In this document: one piece after another, positions 6,839-58,878 of the stretch | Numbering within the stretch: the first letter of the stretch is position 1 | Layout: every line of letters starts with the position of its first letter | Notes under the pieces: generated by a model | What the model saw: the letters and a program-made list of their open reading frames with translations, nothing else | What the model was told of the DNA's origin: nothing | The model's database searches: none | Translations under genes and position numbers: made by a program | NCBI GenBank assembly: GCA_017395505.1 | Contig: JAFPUH010000037.1 | Location: 59,226-123,225, forward strand | Source: Kiritimatiellia bacterium | GTDB lineage: Bacteria; Verrucomicrobiota; Kiritimatiellia; RFP12; UBA1067 | DNA: 64,000 nt | Direction: 5' to 3'

Positions 6839-9800
6839 TCACTTTACCTCCCTGTCCTTAAGCTGACGGCGACGGTACGCCATCGTGGAAATGTATGCAA
6901 ATACGCGCTTGATGTTCTCGCGCCACGTCTGGAAGAGCGCATACAGCCCCGGCACGAGAAGTATGCCGAACACAACCGACGCGAGCATGCCGAAGAATTC
7001 GGTAGTGCCGAGGTGGTTGCGGCTCGCGGCGCCGGCGCCAGTTGCGAGCATCATCGGCAGCGTGCCGAGAAGCGTCGTAAGAGCAGTCATGAGCAGCGCC
7101 CTCAAGCGTTCGCCGGCGGCGGAGCCGGCGGCATCCACGATCGAGTAGCCCTCGTTCTCGCGCTTGTCCTTGGCGAACTCGACTATGAGAATCGCGTTCT
7201 TCGAGGCCAGACCCACGAGCAGCACGATGCCGAGCTGCGCGTATATCGAAAGCGGATACGGCGAGCCTGTCTGGTAGATGCCGAAGTACTTGAGCCCCAG
7301 AAGCGCACCGAACACCGCGACGAAGATGGAAAGCATCACGGGCAGCGGAATCGTCCAGCTCTCGTACTGAGCCACAAGGAAGAGGTAGCCGAAGAGGATC
7401 GCAAGCGCGATCAGCGCCGCGGCACCACCTTCGTTGCGAGCCTCCTGGAACGAGAGATCCGCCCAGTCGTAGCCGTAGTCGCCAGGCAGCTCCTCGGCGA
7501 AGAGCTTCTTTAGCCGCTCCATCACTGCGCCCGACGCGACGCCCGGCATTGGCTGGATCATCAGCTTGGTCGTCACATACTTGTCGCGGGTGTAGACCGT
7601 TCGAGGTCCGAGCTCGCGTGTTATCGTGCCGAGCGAACCGATCTGGACCATCGCGCCTGTCTCACCGCGCACATAGAGGCGAGAGACAGCCTCGGGCGTC
7701 GCGCGCCCTTCCCAGTCGGACTGTATGGTCACGCGGTTGACCTGGGTGCCCAGGTTGACGTCGTTGACGTAGCGCGAACCGAGGTAGTTCTGAAGCGTGG
7801 TGTATACGGTCGCGACAGGCACCTTGTACATCTCGGCCTTCACGCGGTCGAGGTTGAACCTCAGGTGCGGCGTCACCGCGTTGTAGCCTGAGTACGCCAT
7901 CATGATCTCGGGGAAGACGCTCTTGTCGTTCAGCTTCGCGAGCAGCTTCTTCTGAACCTCCTCGACCTTGAGCGGATCGGCCGAACCCTTGTCCTGGATG
8001 TTCACCGAAATGCCGTTCGCCAGGCCGAGGCCGGGAATCGCCGGCGGCATGAACACCTTCCAGCTGGGCTCAGGAACCGCAGCAAGCGTCTGCATCAGCC
8101 TCTGGACGAGTGCTGCGGCGCTCTGGTCCTTGCCCTTGCGCTCCGACCAGTCGGCCAGGTCTACGATCAGCATGGCCTGGTTTTCGCCTCGGCCGCCGAC
8201 CATCGAGAAGCCGGTGATCGTAAGAACGCTGCGAATCTCCGGAACCTTAAGAAGTATGTCCACCGCCCTGAGCGAAACGTCGCGCGTACGGTCGCGGGTA
8301 GAGCCCTCCGGCATCTCCATCGACGCGAAGACGACGCACTGGTCCTCATCCGGCAGGAATGAGGTCTGGGTGCCGAGGAACATCTGGAGAGTCAGCAGGA
8401 TCGTCAGCACGAGCAGCGCCAGCGCAAGGAATATCCTCGACGCGAGCCACTTCGCGAGGCGTATGAAGAAGCCCTTGAACGCATTGATCACCCAGTTGAA
8501 CCATGCGAGCGGACCATGCTTGTATGGCCTCGCCTCGTGCAGTATGAGCGAGCAGAGGGCAGGCGCGAGCGTAAGCGCGCAGACGGTCGAGAAGCAGACC
8601 GCCGCCGAAAGCGTGACGGAGAACTGCTGGTAGATGCGCCCCGTGATGCCGCTCATGAAGCCGACCGGCACGAAGATGCCGAGCAGCACCAGCGTAGTCG
8701 CGATGACTGCGCTCGTCACATCGCTCATCGCCTGTATAGCCGCCTCCTTGGAGTTGAGCCCGCGGGTTTCGATGAGGTACTGCACGCGCTCGACCACGAC
8801 GATGCAGTCGTCGACGACGACACCGATCGCAAGGATCAGTCCGAACAGGGTGAGAATGTTTATCGAATAGCCCAGCGCCGACATGAGAATGAACGTCGAG
8901 CAGAGCGAAACGGGAATGGTGAGGCAAGGTATAAGCGTCGCGCGCCAGTCCTGCAGGAAGAGGTAGCAGACCAGCACCACGAGCGAGAACGTTATGATGA
9001 GCGTCCAGATGATCTCCTGTATGCAACGCTGCACGTAGTCGGTCGCATCGTATGGGATGACCCACTCGAGATCGTCCGGGAACGACTCGGCGAGGTGGGC
9101 CATCTCGGAGCGGATACGCTTCATCGTGGCTATTGCATTGGCGCCCGGCTTCTGCTGCAGGGCTATCGAAACCGCGTTGCCGCCGTCGAGCTGGCCGGTG
9201 AACATGTAGTTCTGCTCGCCGACTTCGGTGCGGGCGATGTCCTTAAGCCTGACTACGCCGCCGTTGGCGTCGCGCCGGACCACGATCTCGTCGAACTCCT
9301 TGGCGGTCATCAGACGCCCCTTCGCGACGAGCGACATCGTGAACCCCGCATGCTCGCCGGTCGGCGCAGCGCCTACCGAGCCAAGCGACGCCTGTATGTT
9401 CTGCTTGGAGACGGCCGCAATCACCTCTTCGGAGTTCATGCCCTGTGCCGCAAGACGCGCAGGGTCGAGCCACACGCGGACCGACAGCTTCGGCCCGTAG
9501 ACCGTCGCCTCGCCCACGCCGGCCACGCGCAGCAGCACCGGCTGGATGTTGGAGTAGATGTAGTCTGATATCTGAAGGCGGGAAAGCGTGCCGTTCGGCG
9601 ACCTGACCGCGATGAAGCCAAGCATGTCCTCTGACTGCGCGCGGATTCGCCCGCCCAGCTGCTTGACTTCTCCCGGCAGCTTGGCCTCGGCCTGCGCGAC
9701 GCGGTTCTGGACCTTTACCATGTCCATGTCGCGGTCGCTGCCGACCTCGAAGGAAACCGTAAGCGAATACGTACCTTCGTCGCTGCAGCTGCCCGTCATG

Positions 9801-15102: not shown

Positions 15103-15114
15103 TATATTATACCA
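15103..15114 (-). promoter_or_regulatory. Extended -10 promoter TGGTATAAT for the STAS / SBP / phosphatase-kinase operon
   Basis: rc of 15106-15114 is TGGTATAAT; about 34-nt leader with an SD. Confidence 0.5.
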
Positions 15115-15386: not shown

Positions 15387-16010
15387 CTATGCGTTTACCC
15401 GCATATCCGCCCAGAGCTGTTCCTGTGCCTCGATGACGAGAAGCATCATTTCGCGGGTCGCGTCATCGATTTCGGCCGCTTCGTACCGTGCATTTGCGAT
15501 GTTGCCGAGCATGATCAGCGCCTCCGTCCACATCTCGTACGAGCAGGAGTCCTTCCTTTTGGCGAGTTTCGCACCTTCGAGAACGTATGCATCGAGCGCC
15601 GTTCGCACATCGCGCTGGAATACGCTCTCGTCGAAAAGCGTGTCGGTGTCGTTGGGGTCGTTCTCGTCGTCGGGGTCCTTGAGCCTGTATTCGAACGTCG
15701 CATCGAAGGCCATGACGAACATCACGACCTCCATGAGCTGGCGCTTGCTGTCGAATTCAAGCGGAAGGCGGCATACGCCGTTCGCGAGACTGTCGGAGTC
15801 CTCATTGATAGCCTTTAGAATGTGGCTCTTCACATTCTCGCGCCTTTCGGCGTCCAGTGAGGGATTCGCCGGCTGCCTGTCGTAGCCGAAGTAGAACATT
15901 TTCAGTATGGGACGCCAGAAGTCGTCCGTCCTGCGCTCCTTTGCGGCCTCCCAGTCAAGGACTTCGCCGTCGGTTCTCTGCGTCTTGCCAATGAAATCGA
16001 GCGTCTTCAT
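15387..16010 (-). CDS. Hypothetical acidic protein (207 aa), downstream partner of the P-loop protein
   Basis: ORF with a 4-nt overlap (16007-16010) to the upstream gene. No recognisable family. Confidence 0.5.
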   Translation of the reverse strand: MKTLDFIGKTQRTDGEVLDWEAAKERRTDDFWRPILKMFYFGYDRQPANPSLDAERRENVKSHILKAINEDSDSLANGVCRLPLEFDSKRQLMEVVMFVMAFDATFEYRLKDPDDENDPNDTDTLFDESVFQRDVRTALDAYVLEGAKLAKRKDSCSYEMWTEALIMLGNIANARYEAAEIDDATREMMLLVIEAQEQLWADMRVNA

Positions 16011-17779
16011 TTCGCGTTCCCCTTCTTTATGACGTATTTGGTGCCCTTTCCGTTCGAGCCGATTCTATGGAGTATCGTCACCTCGTCGCGATCTTCGAGG
16101 GTTTCCTCTATCTTGTCCATCTCGAACTTGGTGACATGCAGCCCCTTTGTGATTTCCGAGCGCATCACTCCCGCGTCGCCTGCCTTGCGGATCATGCGGA
16201 TCGCGGCGAGCACCTTCTCGTCCGTCTCGTTTGTCGCCGCGTAGTCTCGCGCCATCTGCAGCATGCGGCCCTGGATCGCCTTGACGAGCGCCCACGCCCA
16301 GCGGACGCCCTCGACGGAGATAACCGGCCTTTCGATGTCGGCGCTGATCGCGTGCAGGAGCGCGAGCTTGAGGACCAGTTCGACCGAACGTCCCCACACC
16401 GACTCCTCCATCGCGTCGCCCGCCGCCTTTTCGTAGAGCGCGTCCGACTCGTCGGAGACCTTGCGAGCCTCCTCCTCGGCTTCCGGCGACATCTGCACGA
16501 GATACGGCTGTATAGGCCCCCTGTCGCCCGCAGGCGGGGGCATCGCCGCAAGCCGCGACACCTTGTCGGTCACGAAATACGGCACGGGGTTCGCCTCCAG
16601 CCCCGACTTGAAGTTGTCCTTGCTGCGGGGCCCCGCCTCGAATACGAGGCAGCGCCCGAGAAGTCCGCCCGTAAGCGCGCGCTGGCTGAGGGCGCTGTAG
16701 AAGTTGCTCGGCGTCGCTGTCGCGAACATCGAGAAAGAGGGCTTTACGATGTCCTCTCGGCCCTGCGGCTTGTTGGGGCCGGCGGCCTTGGCGCGCGTCG
16801 TGTGGATCGAGCCGGACGACGTGAAGATGCTCAGCATCAAGCGCCAGAGGGATTCCGTCGCCGAGCTGCTGTTGCGGTCGCTCTTGAGCTCGCGAAGCAC
16901 CGAGTCGTACTCGTCGAACTGGCAAAGGAGCGTCGGCGAGTTGAGGAGCGCATCCTCGAGGCCCTGTCCAGAGGCGACGTTCTGTATGACGGACGACGAC
17001 ATGCGGACGTTCGCGGCGAGGTTCTTTATCACCTTTCGGGGGTGGTCCTTGCCGGTCGCGGAGCCGGCGAGCGCGATTATGTAGAGGTTTGGGTATGCGT
17101 CGCGGGGGCCGACGAACTTGCGTCCCGCCAGGTGGGCGAGGAACACGAGCGAGCCCGCGAAGGAAAGCACGCGATTCGGACGGTGGGCCGAGAGCATCAT
17201 GTATTCGGTGAGCTCGTTCACGAAGCCGGGCACATTGAGGAGCGACTCGTCGATCGCGCCCTGGTTCTGGGGCGAGGACGCCTTCTCGGGGGCCGGCGCG
17301 GCCTCGTCGCCGCAGGGCGGCAGGGTGATGGTCGAGATCATGTCTCGAGCGGCCGTGTAGCGGCTCGTCACCTCCTCGTTGAGCGCGGAAAGCGCAAACT
17401 GGCGGGCCTCGAAGGACGGGAAGCTCCGCATGTTGATGTCTTCGGTGCCGCGCCTGAGGTCGCGCTCGCACACGACGGACACGAACTCGCGGAAGTCGGT
17501 GCGAATCGTGGCGGTACTCGCCGCGAGGCCATTGAAGAAGTCCAGAAACCCGTCGTCGGCCAGCTCCGGCATGCTCTTTACGGCCGCAACGCCGCGTACT
17601 ATGGCGTCTTGGCTCGTTTCGTTCATAAGCGCACGGAAAGCGGCGCTTCGGCTGTCGCTCGAGAAATAGCTGTTCTCAATTCCGATCCGCTCGACAAGGA
17701 GTTTCGCCTGCCGCGCGAACTGCACAAGATGAGACAGCACCGCATACTCAAGCCGCTCTTCTTTGGTGATGTCTTTCAT
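16007..17779 (-). CDS. P-loop NTPase-like protein resembling the DUF3987 / VirE (phage-plasmid primase C-terminal-like) family, with a C-terminal winged-helix-like region
   Basis: 590 aa from the internal ATG at 17779. The longer track ORF to 17959 would read through the REP-like repeat. Deviant Walker A LYIIALAGSATGKD and Walker-B-like LLCQFDEYD. TGGTATAAT sits 8 nt upstream of the ATG, suggesting a leaderless transcript. Confidence 0.55.
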   Translation of the reverse strand: MKDITKEERLEYAVLSHLVQFARQAKLLVERIGIENSYFSSDSRSAAFRALMNETSQDAIVRGVAAVKSMPELADDGFLDFFNGLAASTATIRTDFREFVSVVCERDLRRGTEDINMRSFPSFEARQFALSALNEEVTSRYTAARDMISTITLPPCGDEAAPAPEKASSPQNQGAIDESLLNVPGFVNELTEYMMLSAHRPNRVLSFAGSLVFLAHLAGRKFVGPRDAYPNLYIIALAGSATGKDHPRKVIKNLAANVRMSSSVIQNVASGQGLEDALLNSPTLLCQFDEYDSVLRELKSDRNSSSATESLWRLMLSIFTSSGSIHTTRAKAAGPNKPQGREDIVKPSFSMFATATPSNFYSALSQRALTGGLLGRCLVFEAGPRSKDNFKSGLEANPVPYFVTDKVSRLAAMPPPAGDRGPIQPYLVQMSPEAEEEARKVSDESDALYEKAAGDAMEESVWGRSVELVLKLALLHAISADIERPVISVEGVRWAWALVKAIQGRMLQMARDYAATNETDEKVLAAIRMIRKAGDAGVMRSEITKGLHVTKFEMDKIEETLEDRDEVTILHRIGSNGKGTKYVIKKGNAK

Positions 17780-17820
17780 GGCTACTATTATACCAAAAAT
17801 GGCGAGACGGTGCGTCGCAC

Positions 17821-18030
17821 AGGTCCCGGCGGGCAAGGCGTCAAAGTCCCAGGACCCCAGACTATTTTGCCCTGCCACTTTTCGTATTGGAGTCCCAGGA
17901 CCCCAGACGTCAAACCCCCAGGACTTTGACCCCTTGGGTCCTAGGACTTCACACCTCAAAGTCCTAGGACTTCATACCCCAAAGTCCTAGGACTTTGCTC
18001 GCCTCTCCGCGTGACCCCTTCAAGCCGCCT
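17821..18030. repeat. REP-like intergenic element, copy A (about 210 bp) with three GTCCTAGGAC palindromes; homologous to 58599..58760
   Basis: Alignable to copy B from AGGTCC(C/A)GGCGGGCAAGGCGTCAAAGTCCC through GACTTTGCTC.CCT.CCGCGTG. Several nested inverted repeats. Confidence 0.8.
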
Positions 18031-18043
18031 CGAAGAACCACTT

Positions 18044-18071
18044 TCCGCACCATATTTGCAAATATGGTGCG
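18044..18071. repeat. Perfect 28-bp palindrome CCGCACCATATTTGCAAATATGGTGCGG
   Basis: Seen directly in sequence. It sits 26 nt past the stop of the 18097..20262 gene and is not followed by a T-tract. Confidence 0.8.
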
Positions 18072-20262: not shown

Positions 20263-20627
20263 ACTCTTTCTCCTTTCGTAGAATCTGTGATAATGATATG
20301 CGTGCCATAAGGTGCACCTCGTTTTTGAAGTTCCATCTTAATGTTCAATTTATGCCATTCACAATACCTCTTAAGTTCCTCGAATTCTTCTAGTCCGTCG
20401 AAGGCTCCGCTTCCGTGATGCCGAGAGATGAAGCAAACATCACCAGTCGTTGTATAACCAACAGTGGCATGATCAAGAAACTTCAAATTCTTACAAGAAC
20501 CAAATATGCTTTTTTGTAAGCAACCCCTTGGGCACCGGCCGCCACGCAAAACCAGAGCTGGGCAACCAGAATGATAAGTCTTAATCTCCTTGCCGTCTGG
20601 TAAGGAATAAATGTATGGTTTTGACAT
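20259..20627 (-). CDS. Small Cys/His-rich hypothetical protein (122 aa), translationally coupled upstream of the surface protein
   Basis: 4-nt overlap with 18097..20262. Motifs SGCPALVLRGGRCPRGC and HATVGY..ISRHHGSG. Possibly a papain-like or C39-like fold, unproven. Confidence 0.45.
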   Translation of the reverse strand: MSKPYIYSLPDGKEIKTYHSGCPALVLRGGRCPRGCLQKSIFGSCKNLKFLDHATVGYTTTGDVCFISRHHGSGAFDGLEEFEELKRYCEWHKLNIKMELQKRGAPYGTHIIITDSTKGERV

Positions 20628-20852
20628 CTATCAGTATCTCCTTTCGCCTGCCGCTACCTAGTTTGTGAGATGAGCACCGGTGGCAAAAGATAAGCGGCGC
20701 ACTCTCAAGATTCACATCTTCTGGAGGCACCGGAAAGAGCCCGAAGTAAAACATGATTAGAAAGTACGCCGCGTGGATACCACGCAGCGCAACTTCGTAT
20801 TTCGCCTTACTCCTTGAAAATTTCCGGTTTTCCAGAAAGCTACTATACGCTG

Positions 20853-21036
20853 TTGCGTACGTTGCACGGGTTAGGTTGCCCACCCCGCGCTTTTCTCCAC
20901 TCCACTTCACCCGAAGTGTGGGAGCTACGGCCGGCTTTTCTGCCCGACCGGTATGTCAAAGAACCTTGCCCTTCTCGCGAAGGAACGGCGAATATGATAC
21001 CATATCGCCGCGCTCATTTCAAGCGCGGCGAGAGGG
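20853..21036 (-). repeat. About 185-bp repeat R190, copy 1: GC-rich structured segment ending in a hairpin (TCGCCGCGC-TCATTTCAA-GCGCGGCGA) immediately followed by TGGTATCAT
   Basis: More than 95% identical to 21616..21797. The 3' 50 nt also occur at 23121..23170 and, diverged, at 58836..58878. Confidence 0.85.
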
Positions 21037-21063
21037 AAATTAGTTTTCGAAATTCTGTGCCTA

Positions 21064-21312
21064 CTACACCCGAACACCATATTCATATATGGCATCACTC
21101 GGCAAATCTATTCTATCGCTCCAAACAACGCATGTCCGACTTGAATCAAGCCGCGCATTCTCAAACAACCCAGGCAATGTGCGCAAGTCTTCAAACGCCT
21201 TTATTGTGCTGATATCATCGGCGACGTCATATACCACATCCCGCCCCTCGTCAAAATGGACGAAGAGTTTGTAATCTGGCAAGGTCTTAATACTTGATAT
21301 CCTGCGTATCAT
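21064..21312 (-). CDS. DUF2442 family protein
   Basis: 82 aa with the characteristic ...VVWSDRIDL....LY C-terminal pattern. Forms the usual pair with DUF4160. Confidence 0.65.
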   Translation of the reverse strand: MIRRISSIKTLPDYKLFVHFDEGRDVVYDVADDISTIKAFEDLRTLPGLFENARLDSSRTCVVWSDRIDLPSDAIYEYGVRV

Positions 21313-21324
21313 AGCTTAGCCCTA

Positions 21325-21576
21325 TCAAAGCGGTGGCAGCTTCACTATCCGCTGTGTCTTCCACATTTCTTCCAGTTCGCCTCTGTGCAACGACAACCAT
21401 TCCTTGACAAGTCGCTGCGCAGTCAATGGCAAATCTCCATCCGTCATTTCGGACGAAGCCAAATCAAACACTCCGACGCACTCGCCATAAATGGCATGTA
21501 TGTGCGACGGATCATGTTCTTTAGGCTTAAAGAACATCTTAACGACTATACCATAAAATCTTGCAATCTCTGGCAT
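21325..21576 (-). CDS. DUF4160 family protein
   Basis: Starts at internal ATG 21576 (MPEIARFYGIVVKMF...HIHA.YGE...) with SD GGAGGG 8 nt upstream. The track ORF to 21630 is an upstream extension. Confidence 0.65.
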   Translation of the reverse strand: MPEIARFYGIVVKMFFKPKEHDPSHIHAIYGECVGVFDLASSEMTDGDLPLTAQRLVKEWLSLHRGELEEMWKTQRIVKLPPL

Positions 21577-21615
21577 TTTAAATGCCCTCCTTTCTTTCCG
21601 ATGGTCTATTCTAAA

Positions 21616-21797
21616 TTGCGTACGCTGCACGGGTTAGGTTGCCCACCCCGCGCTTTTCTCCACTCCACTTCACCCGAAGTGTGGGAGCTACGGCCGGCTT
21701 TTCTGCCCGACCGGTATGTCAAAGAACCTTGCCCTTCTCGCGAAGAACAGCGAATATAATACCATATCGCCGCGCTCATTTCAAGCGCGGCGAGAGG
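21616..21797 (-). repeat. About 185-bp repeat R190, copy 2 (hairpin plus TGGTATTAT at its upstream end); precedes the DUF4160/DUF2442 cassette
   Basis: Near-identical to 20853..21036; ends 40 nt before the DUF4160 ATG. Confidence 0.85.
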
Positions 21798-21850
21798 TCA
21801 AAATCTCATTCCTTCAGTGGGCTCGGAGTAATGCGCAAATCCGGCTGCAA

Positions 21851-22051
21851 TCACTTTGAACGAATACAGTTGTAAAGATATTCGCCACTTTCACGGTAAA
21901 GTCCCGACTCAGGGTCTATCAGCTTAGTGAAGAATGCAGAATGATAAACCTCGTCCATGGCATCTTCAGGCGACTTACCCTCATGTGCGACAATCGCCGC
22001 AATCAAGTCCTGTATCGCAAACTCGATAAGCTGCTTCTGCTCATTTGACAT
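21851..22051 (-). CDS. DUF3791-like small protein
   Basis: Internal start MSNEQKQLIEFAI...SPEDAMDEVYHSAFFTKL resembles the DUF3791 N-terminal region. Overlaps the DUF3990 3' end. Confidence 0.5.
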   Translation of the reverse strand: MSNEQKQLIEFAIQDLIAAIVAHEGKSPEDAMDEVYHSAFFTKLIDPESGLYRESGEYLYNCIRSK

Positions 22052-23104: not shown

Positions 23105-23120
23105 ATTTGCAACATCCCGA

Positions 23121-23170
23121 AGGAACACCGATATGATACCATATCGCCACGCGCGAATCAAGCGCTGAAC
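23121..23170 (-). repeat. R190 3'-tail fragment (hairpin plus TGGTATCAT) at the right boundary of the low-GC island
   Basis: CGAAGGAACACCGATATGATACCATATCGCCACGCGCGAATCAAGCGCTG aligns to the last 50 nt of R190. GC composition returns to the flank level immediately to the right. Confidence 0.7.
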
Positions 23171-44422: not shown

Positions 44423-44499
44423 TGGTGGGCGGTGAGAGACTCGGACTCCCGACCTTGACCGTGTAAAGGTCCTGCTCTAACCAACTGAGCTAACCGCCC
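44423..44499 (-). tRNA. tRNA-Val (anticodon TAC), CCA encoded
   Basis: rc is GGGCGGTTAGCTCAGTTGGTTAGAGCAGGACCTTTACACGGTCAAGGTCGGGAGTCCGAGTCTCTCACCGCCCACCA, which folds as a cloverleaf (7-bp acceptor, GCTC/GAGC D-stem, anticodon loop TTTACAC, T-arm GGGAG/CTCTC). A TGATATAAT promoter lies 14 nt upstream. Confidence 0.85.
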
Positions 44500-58500: not shown

Positions 58501-58598
58501 GATGTCCCCTACAGTTAGGGAGATGTAGCGTGTACTTGATTGGCATAATGATGCGATGGCGAATCTTCTACAAAAAACGCCCTTCGACGCTGCTGTGC

Positions 58599-58760
58599 AG
58601 GTCCAGGCGGGCAAGGCGTCAAAGTCCCGGGACCCCAGACCTTTTTCCCCCGCCACTTTTCGTATTGGGGTCCCAGGGCCCTACACGTCAAACCCCCAGG
58701 ACTTTGACCATTGGGGTCCTAGGACTTTGCTCCCCTCCCCGCGTGGCCCTTTCTAGCCGC
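58599..58760. repeat. REP-like intergenic element, copy B (about 160 bp; one GTCCTAGGAC palindrome); homologous to 17821..18030
   Basis: Same orientation and about 85% identity with copy A over the alignable parts. The spurious 58414..58656 ORF lies inside it. Confidence 0.8.
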
Positions 58761-58835
58761 GACCGTCTAAGCGCAACCAACACCCAGGGGCAGCAAGCTT
58801 CAACCCAAAGAAATGCTCAAGTCACAGGAACAGAG

Positions 58836-58878
58836 ATATAACACCAAATCGCCGTGCTCATTTCAAGTGGGGCGAAAG
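58836..58878. repeat. Diverged R190 3'-tail (hairpin TCGCCGTGC-TCATTTCAA-GTGGGGCGA plus TGGTGTTAT) next to REP-B
   Basis: ATATAACACCAAATCGCCGTGCTCATTTCAAGTGGGGCGAAAG aligns to the R190 tail ATGATACCATATCGCCGCGCTCATTTCAAGCGCGGCGAGAG. Confidence 0.55.

Follow-up and report, generated by a model that had tools for sequence, protein, structure and literature searches.

We propose that R190, a 185-bp repeat present in two copies in a 64,000-nucleotide stretch of Kiritimatiellia DNA (GenBank assembly GCA_017395505.1, contig JAFPUH010000037.1, positions 59,226 to 123,225; referred to here as the window and numbered from its first letter), comprises a promoter and the 5' half of a longer regulatory RNA. 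This RNA would be a cis-acting, structured attenuator leader of about 300 nt, of the terminator/antiterminator type, occurring in gut and rumen Kiritimatiellia and their relatives; we assign this reading a probability of roughly 0.6. As far as the sequence comparisons indicate, the leader is a new RNA family of this kind, whose platform is unusually well conserved, whose 5' domain diversifies and whose regulon consists of contingency genes. Kiritimatiellia are abundant and almost uncultured gut and rumen bacteria, and an RNA with strong covariation, two folds and many copies per community offers a ready orphan switch for biochemistry.

The R190 repeat and the proposed leader to which it belongs

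The two copies, R1 (20853-21036) and R2 (21616-21797), are direct repeats with 97.8% identity over 183 nt. They lie 763 bp apart inside a low-GC island and flank genes that Pfam confirms as DUF4160 and DUF2442, which bears out the original prediction of repeats more than 95% identical around this gene pair. Both are read on the minus strand, the coding strand here, where each copy starts with CGCCGCGC-TTGAAATGA-GCGCGGCG, then ATA, then TGGTAT(C/T)AT. The hairpin and the -10 box described earlier are therefore both present, with the box standing 3 nt past the hairpin and not directly abutting it. A consensus scan finds the -35 element TTGAAA in the hairpin loop, a 17 nt spacer, and, preceded by a TG, TATCAT or TATTAT, which together agree with the consensus at 10 of 12 positions; this head is thus predicted to carry a promoter of the sigma-70 type, and its hairpin may also act as a terminator for the upstream gene.

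The 185-bp unit is composite and is not the natural or functional one. It joins three parts: a 54-nt head, consisting of the GC hairpin with the -35 element in its loop and then the extended -10 box; a 5' RNA domain of three hairpins (P1 to P3); and the first strand, A, of a downstream switch. Its 3' edge (20853 in R1, 21616 in R2) marks only the end of the homology between the two copies. R1 continues for about 165 nt past this edge, taking in another conserved domain before it reaches a 13-bp helix with a U-tract (20706-20685), giving a full leader of about 300 nt in the window, from about 20987 to 20685 on the minus strand. R2 is without this 3' domain, and ends just past strand A to run into the ribosome-binding site of the DUF4160 gene; a comparable shortened leader stands ahead of a DUF4160 gene in another species (L040). 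The earlier view of R190 as a promoter-plus-leader module is therefore upheld as to promoter, covarying RNA body and co-oriented genes, and revised as to the unit, the real element being the longer leader. The parts of the two copies are as follows.

21006-21030, minus strand: head hairpin of R1 (CGCCGCGC-TTGAAATGA-GCGCGGCG), 33 nt past the DUF2442 stop codon, with the -35 element TTGAAA at 21022-21017
20994-21002, minus strand: extended -10 box of R1 (TGGTATCAT) from the promoter scan; predicted transcription start near 20987
20851-20968, minus strand: 5' RNA domain of R1, type 1, with motif UUCUUUGACAUA, P1 at 20951-20927, P2/P2a at 20924-20895 and P3 at 20890-20864; by sequence, P3 contains GGGGUGGGCAACCUAACCC and strand A is ACGUACGCAA (20862-20853)
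21756-21797, minus strand: head of R2, with the hairpin at 21792-21768, the -35 element TTGAAA at 21784 and the extended -10 box TGGTATTAT at 21764-21756
21614-21731, minus strand: 5' RNA domain of R2, ending with strand A, without a 3' switch domain, and fused to the DUF4160 gene 38 nt ahead of its start codon (21576)
21064-21576, minus strand: DUF4160 (21325-21576) and DUF2442 (21064-21312) genes by Pfam, the cassette enclosed by both repeats

Relatives of the leader are widespread. A first pattern, ACTTCGGGTGAAGTGGAGTGGAG, had no match in the genome collection, since the P2a stretch varies between species. A 19-mer from P3, GGGGTGGGCAACCTAACCC, matched 40 stretches in the collection of species-representative genomes, and the leader is present at 36 of these loci, in 29 assemblies. 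The remaining four were set aside as chance matches: L037, L038 and L043 from Acidobacteriota, in what is apparently conserved coding sequence, and L052 from Latescibacterota. The hosts are nearly all metagenome-assembled genomes of gut origin (human, rumen, horse, sheep and yak) that carry the label Kiritimatiellia, Lentisphaerae or Verrucomicrobia; a contig binned as Limosilactobacillus (L054) has a typical leader and is probably mis-binned. Across the aligned loci the conservation extends about 165 nt beyond R190, to the helix and U-tract. A metagenome scan with the 3'-domain motif GGGCGTTTGGCGATGCCTN{5,6}AGAC brought at least 120 rumen and gut contigs. Neither of the two patterns used on the genome collection matched viral contigs, which gave no evidence of carriage by phages.

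No Rfam family accounts for the leader. Rfam 15 (4227 models), applied at gathering thresholds, finds only a tRNA (44426-44499) in the whole window and nothing in eight homologous loci, in agreement with the original remark that the repeat could not be matched to a known non-coding RNA; with E values up to 10, the intervals 20560-21060 and 20700-21900 give only chance-level scores of 13-18 bits. In the papers searched for Kiritimatiellia and Lentisphaerae we found no relevant structured RNA, riboswitch or RNA regulator, and the main text of a catalogue of human-microbiome candidate RNAs does not mention these phyla.

Covariation in the 5' domain and in two exclusive 3' folds

Within the 5' domain, P1 is CCGGUCG/CGGCCGG with a variable loop, P2/P2a is CUYCYC...GRGRAG around a variable hairpin, and P3 is GCGCGGG-GU-GGG-CAA-CCU-AA-CCCGUGC; the domain terminates in the palindromic strand A, (A/G)CGUACGC(A/G)A. 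The GC-rich hairpin singled out earlier, CACUUCGGGUGAAGUG, is the window's version of helix P2a, which covaries in other species. An unfiltered search of the window with a covariance model of this domain recovers both copies (20851-20968 with 112.2 bits and E 1.3e-30; 21614-21731 with 113.3 bits), and the next-best match anywhere else in the window scores 8.5 bits. When 32 distinct sequences are aligned with plain MAFFT, 90.8% of the cells in the proposed pairs can pair, and 14 of the 29 pairs change on both sides. A control in which the 3' partners were slid by 1-3 columns gives 35-46%, and up to 47% across this and a second, independent set. The latter, of metagenomic sequences, was fetched through the 3'-domain motif and is hence unselected on the 5' domain; with its alignment fitted to the model, it gives 89.0%, with changes on both sides in 25 of the 29 pairs.

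The 3'-domain covariance model finds the R1 domain with 121.9 bits (E 2.9e-28) and no second one in the window. From strand A onwards, the elements follow each other along the RNA in the order A, B, C, X, GAAA, D, Y, C', B', A', a hairpin apex and T, and then a U-rich linker, Y', GGC-D'-GCC, X', AGAC, T' and the U-tract, where primed strands pair with their unprimed namesakes. In R1 they are placed as follows.

20711-20851, minus strand: 3' switch domain, with X at 20838-20832 and X' at 20723-20717; D at 20828-20821 and D' at 20736-20729; Y at 20813-20809 and Y' at 20747-20743; and hairpin H, in which A' pairs with T, at 20791-20765
20685-20771, minus strand: terminator fold, in which T (GCGGCGUACUUUC, 20771-20759) pairs with T' (GAGAGUGCGCCGC, 20706-20694) ahead of the U-tract UUAUCUUUU (20693-20685), excluding hairpin H

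Two folds can be drawn through these elements. In the first, which we call ON, X:X', D:D', Y:Y' and hairpin H are all nested. Its pairs are kept in 88.6% of cells in a plain MAFFT alignment, against 36-48% in the slid control, and 24 of its 38 pairs change on both sides; the X and Y helices show all four Watson-Crick pair types at most positions. The figure is 93.3% after model alignment and 94.8% on 83 distinct metagenomic sequences, with slid controls of 33-48% overall. In the second fold, OFF, A:A', B:B' and C:C' pair, a local hairpin forms around D', and T:T' makes 12-13 bp followed by UUCAUUUUU or UUAUCUUUU. Including T:T', its pairs are kept in 90.2% of cells (30-54% when slid), and 17 of 50 change on both sides; T:T' alone is paired in 86%, with 6 of 13 pairs changing on both sides. 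One position of T, which is either U or C, covaries with its partner in A' within hairpin H (A-U, G-U and G-C) and also with its partner in T' (U-A 27 times, C-G 9 times). Strand T is common to hairpin H and T:T', and A' is common to A:A' and H, so that these pairings are mutually exclusive. Covariation, proposed as a check with the original prediction, speaks for the hairpins of the 5' domain and for two 3'-domain folds that exclude each other, one antiterminator-like and one a terminator. The covariance models score 90-153 bits on the forward strand of the leaders and 25-42 bits on the reverse, and G-U pairs are frequent in the alignments; both observations agree with an RNA read from the minus strand of the window.

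We propose that these folds constitute a switch. In the OFF state, pairing of A:A', B:B' and C:C' would free T for T', and the resulting helix of 12-13 bp with its U-tract would act as an intrinsic terminator. In the ON state, hairpin H together with the long nested X:X', D:D' and Y:Y' helices would leave T' unpaired, allowing polymerase to read into the downstream gene. The OFF state would be reached co-transcriptionally, its 5' elements up to A' emerging before T, and a putative effector acting on the 5' domain or on strand A would tip the balance to ON. R2, by this account, would be a truncated version, the 5' domain only, fused to the DUF4160/DUF2442 cassette.

Several other pairings and devices were considered for the leader and rejected. 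The sequences were inspected by eye for a long-range pairing of UUCUUUGACAUA (or GAAACAU) with the CAUGUUU linker or with the stretch preceding T'. One such pairing, CAAGGUUC:GAAUCUUG, appears in the minimum free energy prediction for the window, but other species do not preserve it. Some copies have a potential leader peptide, AUGAAAGGAAG...UGA, but its start codon is not conserved. The UGGG/UGGC motif of P3 could in principle pair with the 3' end of a tRNA in the manner of a T-box, an idea for which we found no supporting evidence.

The 3' platform is shared more widely than the type-1 5' domain. An R190-type P3 is present in only about a quarter of the metagenome contigs listed; others carry different sequences, for example CCGGG-AAAUCCCGAAAGGA-CCCGG or GGCGG-GUGGCAACAU-CCGCC, at the position of P3, sometimes with extra hairpins. 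The type-1 model aligns end to end with one other subtype at 28-40 bits, which indicates a common three-hairpin architecture with divergent loops. In the AT-rich contigs L070, L113 and L171, which probably come from a different lineage, the X/D/Y/T architecture and the exact D' motif are kept; this suggests a broader taxonomic range or a horizontal spread of the 3' domain. Contig L024 has a second type-1 leader (7547-7847), in which one C of the P3 loop is replaced by A and about 70 nt, forming an additional hairpin, are inserted between P3 and strand A; cassettes of leader and gene can therefore follow one another within about 2 kb. In L051 a tRNA-like sequence (GTTAGCTCAGTTGGTAGAGCATGTGAC...) lies directly 3' of the leader end.

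Downstream genes and the weighing of alternatives

A gene occupying the first 900 nt downstream is co-oriented with the leader at 110 of the 116 loci that have enough downstream sequence, while upstream genes divide evenly (36 on the same strand and 38 on the opposite strand, among 74 loci). Most copies have a promoter of their own of the TGGTATAAT type, 90-200 nt upstream of P3. Together, the co-oriented downstream genes and the promoters favor a 5' leader over an independent small-RNA gene. In the window, R1 is a complete leader ahead of the genes for a 122-aa protein (start codon at 20627, 58 nt past the U-tract) and a 721-aa surface protein. Elsewhere the downstream genes are diverse but recognizably accessory, most of them belonging to BspA/LRR-type surface proteins, polysaccharide functions, restriction-modification or candidate defence. 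They encode BspA-type LRR and Listeria-Bacteroides-repeat surface proteins; FGE-sulfatase, BACON and CHB_HEX_C proteins; FRG, 8xMP, SRA, DUF2971 and caspase-like proteins; DNA methylases, an SNF2/PLD helicase and an Mrr nuclease; glycosyltransferases, GtrA and MBOAT; and an NYN RNase. One large surface-protein cluster follows every 5'-domain subtype, and the subtypes therefore do not partition gene function. The leader appears to control strain-variable surface proteins and defence systems, which shape phage susceptibility and host interaction.

Open reading frames have been called across the leader, namely a 125-aa gene on contigs of the L002 type (L002 8584-8961) and, in the window, frames of 109 and 57 aa (20581-20910 and 21606-21779). 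They are probably spurious, given the RNA-type conservation of this region, and covariance models of the leader could flag both leaders and spurious overlapping frames in metagenome-assembled genomes.

The organization found here resembles that of known terminator/antiterminator leaders such as riboswitch platforms, T-box and trp-type leaders. A predicted promoter is followed by a leader and a co-oriented gene; A, A', T and T' form overlapping, exclusive helices; the last, GC-rich helix is followed by a U-tract; the antiterminator shares strand T with it; and a structured 5' domain occupies the position of a sensor. The sharing of T and A' follows the classical 1:2 / 2:3 / 3:4 logic of attenuators. 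In contrast to these systems, the leader matches none of the 4227 Rfam families and has no conserved leader peptide, its platform is conserved better than any other part, the presumed sensor having split into subtypes, the terminator helix spans a long range and encloses about 60 nt, and the targets are heterogeneous accessory genes and not a single pathway. The c-di-GMP riboswitches GEMM-I and GEMM-II likewise occur in many copies per genome, upstream of surface, polysaccharide and lifestyle genes, but share no sequence or structure match with the leader in Rfam at E values up to 10, and a second-messenger ligand is here pure conjecture.

A number of observations weigh against an attenuator. 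The unconstrained minimum free energy structure of the window leader is the ON fold, at -128.1 kcal/mol, while constraining it to the OFF fold gives only -101.0 kcal/mol; use of the terminator would therefore need kinetic trapping during transcription. The span of some 60 nt enclosed by T:T' is unusual for an intrinsic terminator. The OFF-fold helices are more conserved in sequence, so that their covariation is thinner than that of the ON fold, and covariance-model alignments lean towards the model's own structure. The 5' domain is structured and conserved, yet the diversity of the targets and the recurrence of one cluster behind all subtypes argue against a classical metabolite riboswitch, or distinct metabolite sensors. 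Truncated copies (R2, L040, L015a) do without the switch, so that the 5' domain may serve a purpose of its own or be left over from recombination. The repeats, the promoter consensus, the cross-species conservation, the covariation of both folds, the orientation of the genes and the differences between strains are seen in the sequences themselves; transcription start, actual termination, switching, the effector and the recombination mechanism are inferred.

A more ambitious form of this proposal, which we offer tentatively and consider rather unlikely, is that the leader represents a new class of kinetically controlled RNA switch through which gut and rumen Kiritimatiellia, together with related uncultured lineages, jointly gate their "contingency" genome: giant BspA/LRR-type surface proteins, polysaccharide-modification genes, restriction-modification systems and candidate defence systems. 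A rapidly diversifying 5' sensor would drive the conserved platform, and recognition of a putative trans factor (a protein, a tRNA-like RNA or a second messenger) would owe its specificity to the P3 loop, GUGG(G)CAAC in subtypes 1 and 3. Since the module is present in every cassette, this RNA would in addition promote the shuffling of cassettes through recombination.

If the element were instead an independent gene for a trans-acting small RNA of about 300 nt, equipped with promoter and terminator and unrelated to the genes downstream, this would account for the predicted promoter, for the helix and U-tract at the 3' end, for several copies per genome and for the diversity of what follows them. 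We judge this improbable: the marked difference between downstream and upstream gene orientation is not what it predicts, a constitutive terminator does not need hairpin H and T:T' to be exclusive and both to covary, and truncated copies run straight into ribosome-binding sites.

About as improbable, in our estimation, is a processive-antitermination leader of the put, EAR or LoaP/UpxY type, in which the RNA or a recruited NusG-type factor would modify polymerase so that terminators within long surface-protein, polysaccharide and defence operons are bypassed. Such leaders (HK022 put, Bacillus EAR, LoaP leaders, ops/JUMPstart-RfaH and the 5' untranslated regions of Bacteroides UpxY operons) are likewise promoter-proximal and precede similar long surface, polysaccharide or horizontally acquired operons. 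The leader described here lies just downstream of its promoters, all 5' subtypes precede the same gene class, and the cargo includes very long surface-protein genes together with glycosyltransferase/MBOAT/GtrA and restriction-modification genes; cargo of this kind resembles the RfaH, UpxY and LoaP regulons. On the other hand, a predicted terminator of its own with an alternative pairing is the hallmark of a local attenuator, Rfam gives no EAR or JUMPstart match, and no NusG paralogue turned up near the loci, although no search aimed at one was made.

Cassettes, promoter heads and the accessory island

The promoter head also occurs without the RNA. The tail-only copies reported in the original prediction exist at two places, both as heads only, and the RNA body is absent from each by the window-wide search with the 5'-domain model.

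23115-23165, minus strand: head-only copy with a degenerate hairpin, 82.7% identical over 52 nt, with TTGATT-17-TATCAT and TG, preceding a gene that Pfam confirms as an MNT-type nucleotidyltransferase
58826-58878, minus strand: head-only copy, 81-85% identical over 52-54 nt, with a partial copy of an iteron-like array about 65 nt downstream

The sequence TGGTATNAT has 13 matches in the window, where 0.41 are expected, all on the minus strand; it is therefore the genome's generic extended -10 box and is not specific to the repeat. Its sites, for example at 15106, 17787, 27717, 32744, 37513, 44345, 53425 and 58107, provide a usable promoter map for the organism.

The low-GC island (about 18.0-23.1 kb, with a GC content of 0.44-0.53 against 0.60-0.62 in the flanks) holds the cassettes and the 721-aa CHB_HEX_C/Fn3_assoc surface protein. 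Between 21851 and 23104, PADLOC matches the MNT-type gene to PDC-S09, and the DUF3791, DUF3990 and 66-aa genes to the three components of PDC-M13, both of them candidate systems, which makes the island cassettes candidate anti-phage systems.

Contigs of other strains encoding identical DUF4160 or 122-aa proteins were compared with the window. The module precedes DUF3791/DUF3990 in L015, lies directly between the MNT and 122-aa genes in L011, and is found at a different chromosomal site, after an AMP-binding gene, in L002-L004, L007 and L008. A unit of 816 bp, made up of a head, a 5' domain, DUF4160, DUF2442 and the next head (window 21796-20983), is 97% identical to L002 8770-9583, and both flanks differ. 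Compared with the window, L015 is missing exactly one repeat unit (763 bp), and a 36-nt piece, the P3 loop with strand A, stands alone at another junction (L002 7144-7179). The strain cassette boundaries coincide with the repeated heads and 5' domains. These observations support in part the earlier suggestion that the module organizes the cassettes. With its own copy of head and 5' domain, each cassette would bring portable homology for gain, loss and movement between strains, and homologous recombination between repeats of 54-180 nt would be the simplest account of the exchange, with site-specific recombination as a conceivable alternative. The leader may thus illustrate, on a concrete case, how the copies of a regulatory RNA can double as substrates for recombination and so reshape an accessory island.

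The alternative that the repeat is itself an element of DNA recombination, a folded single-stranded DNA or recombinase site of the attC or inverton kind that shuffles cassettes, was also raised originally as a recombination hairpin. The position of the cassette boundaries and the lone fragment at the L002 junction would agree with it. X-D-Y and Y'-D'-X' form a long imperfect inverted repeat, the cargo resembles that of integrons or invertons, and ACCTAAC in P3 fits RYYYAAC. In integrons, too, a structured repeat separates small accessory, toxin-antitoxin or defence cassettes of strain-variable content. Here, however, every cassette has its own promoter, the element is 5' and not 3' of the gene, and the covariation fits a transcribed RNA with a terminator. 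The single ACCTAAC is not accompanied by a paired GTTRRRY (R''/R'), by our own estimate about 0.36 chance matches are expected in 184 nt, and other 5' subtypes lack it; on these grounds an attC site was rejected. Among the ten open reading frames of the island that were scanned, Pfam detects neither an integrase nor an invertase. The invertible promoters of Bacteroidales likewise serve surface-protein, capsule/polysaccharide and restriction-modification genes, but the promoter here lies outside the inverted repeat and is not flanked by such repeats, and the repeat arms vary freely between copies. The strand-specific G-U pairs and much higher forward-strand scores fit RNA, plain homologous recombination suffices, and the head hairpin is not conserved outside the species, its exact pattern occurring only in strain-variant loci of the same species. 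We therefore regard a dedicated recombination element as very unlikely.

That R190 is a recent local duplication or a mobile promoter resembling a miniature inverted-repeat transposable element (MITE), without RNA function, is scarcely credible. The near-identity of two copies only 763 bp from each other within a low-GC island, and the existence of head-only and body-only fragments, would fit, but the idea is largely refuted by the homologues found in 29 species-representative assemblies and on at least 120 metagenome contigs, among which each helix shows compensatory changes. Consideration of the repeat ends (CCTCTCGCC... and ...GCGTACGCAA) also led us to reject a MITE or a repeat of the REP type, as these ends show neither terminal inverted repeats nor flanking target-site duplications, and there are only two body copies in 64 kb.

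The attenuator leader that we favor is accompanied in the window by further features. The DUF4160 start codon lies within a near-perfect palindrome, GGCATTTAAAATGCC (21572-21586), which is kept in the strain-variant loci and may form a hairpin for translational control.

An iteron-like array of the palindromic AAGTCCTAGGACTT / GGGTCCTGGGAC (17820-18028, minus strand) stands directly upstream of a DUF3987 (primase-helicase-like) gene (16007-17779), and could represent an origin, an operator or what is left of a mobile island. The iterons, DUF3987 and a 207-aa gene (window 15902-18060) are 96% identical to L002 13551-15719 and L003 10217-12385, where the block sits at a different site, between the AMP-binding gene and DHDPS. 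For this reason the whole island, with its cassettes, giant surface protein and DUF3987 gene, looks mobile, yet no integrase was found among the ten frames scanned. A partial copy of the iterons, 90% identical, recurs at 58598-58760 with a head promoter and without the DUF3987 gene.

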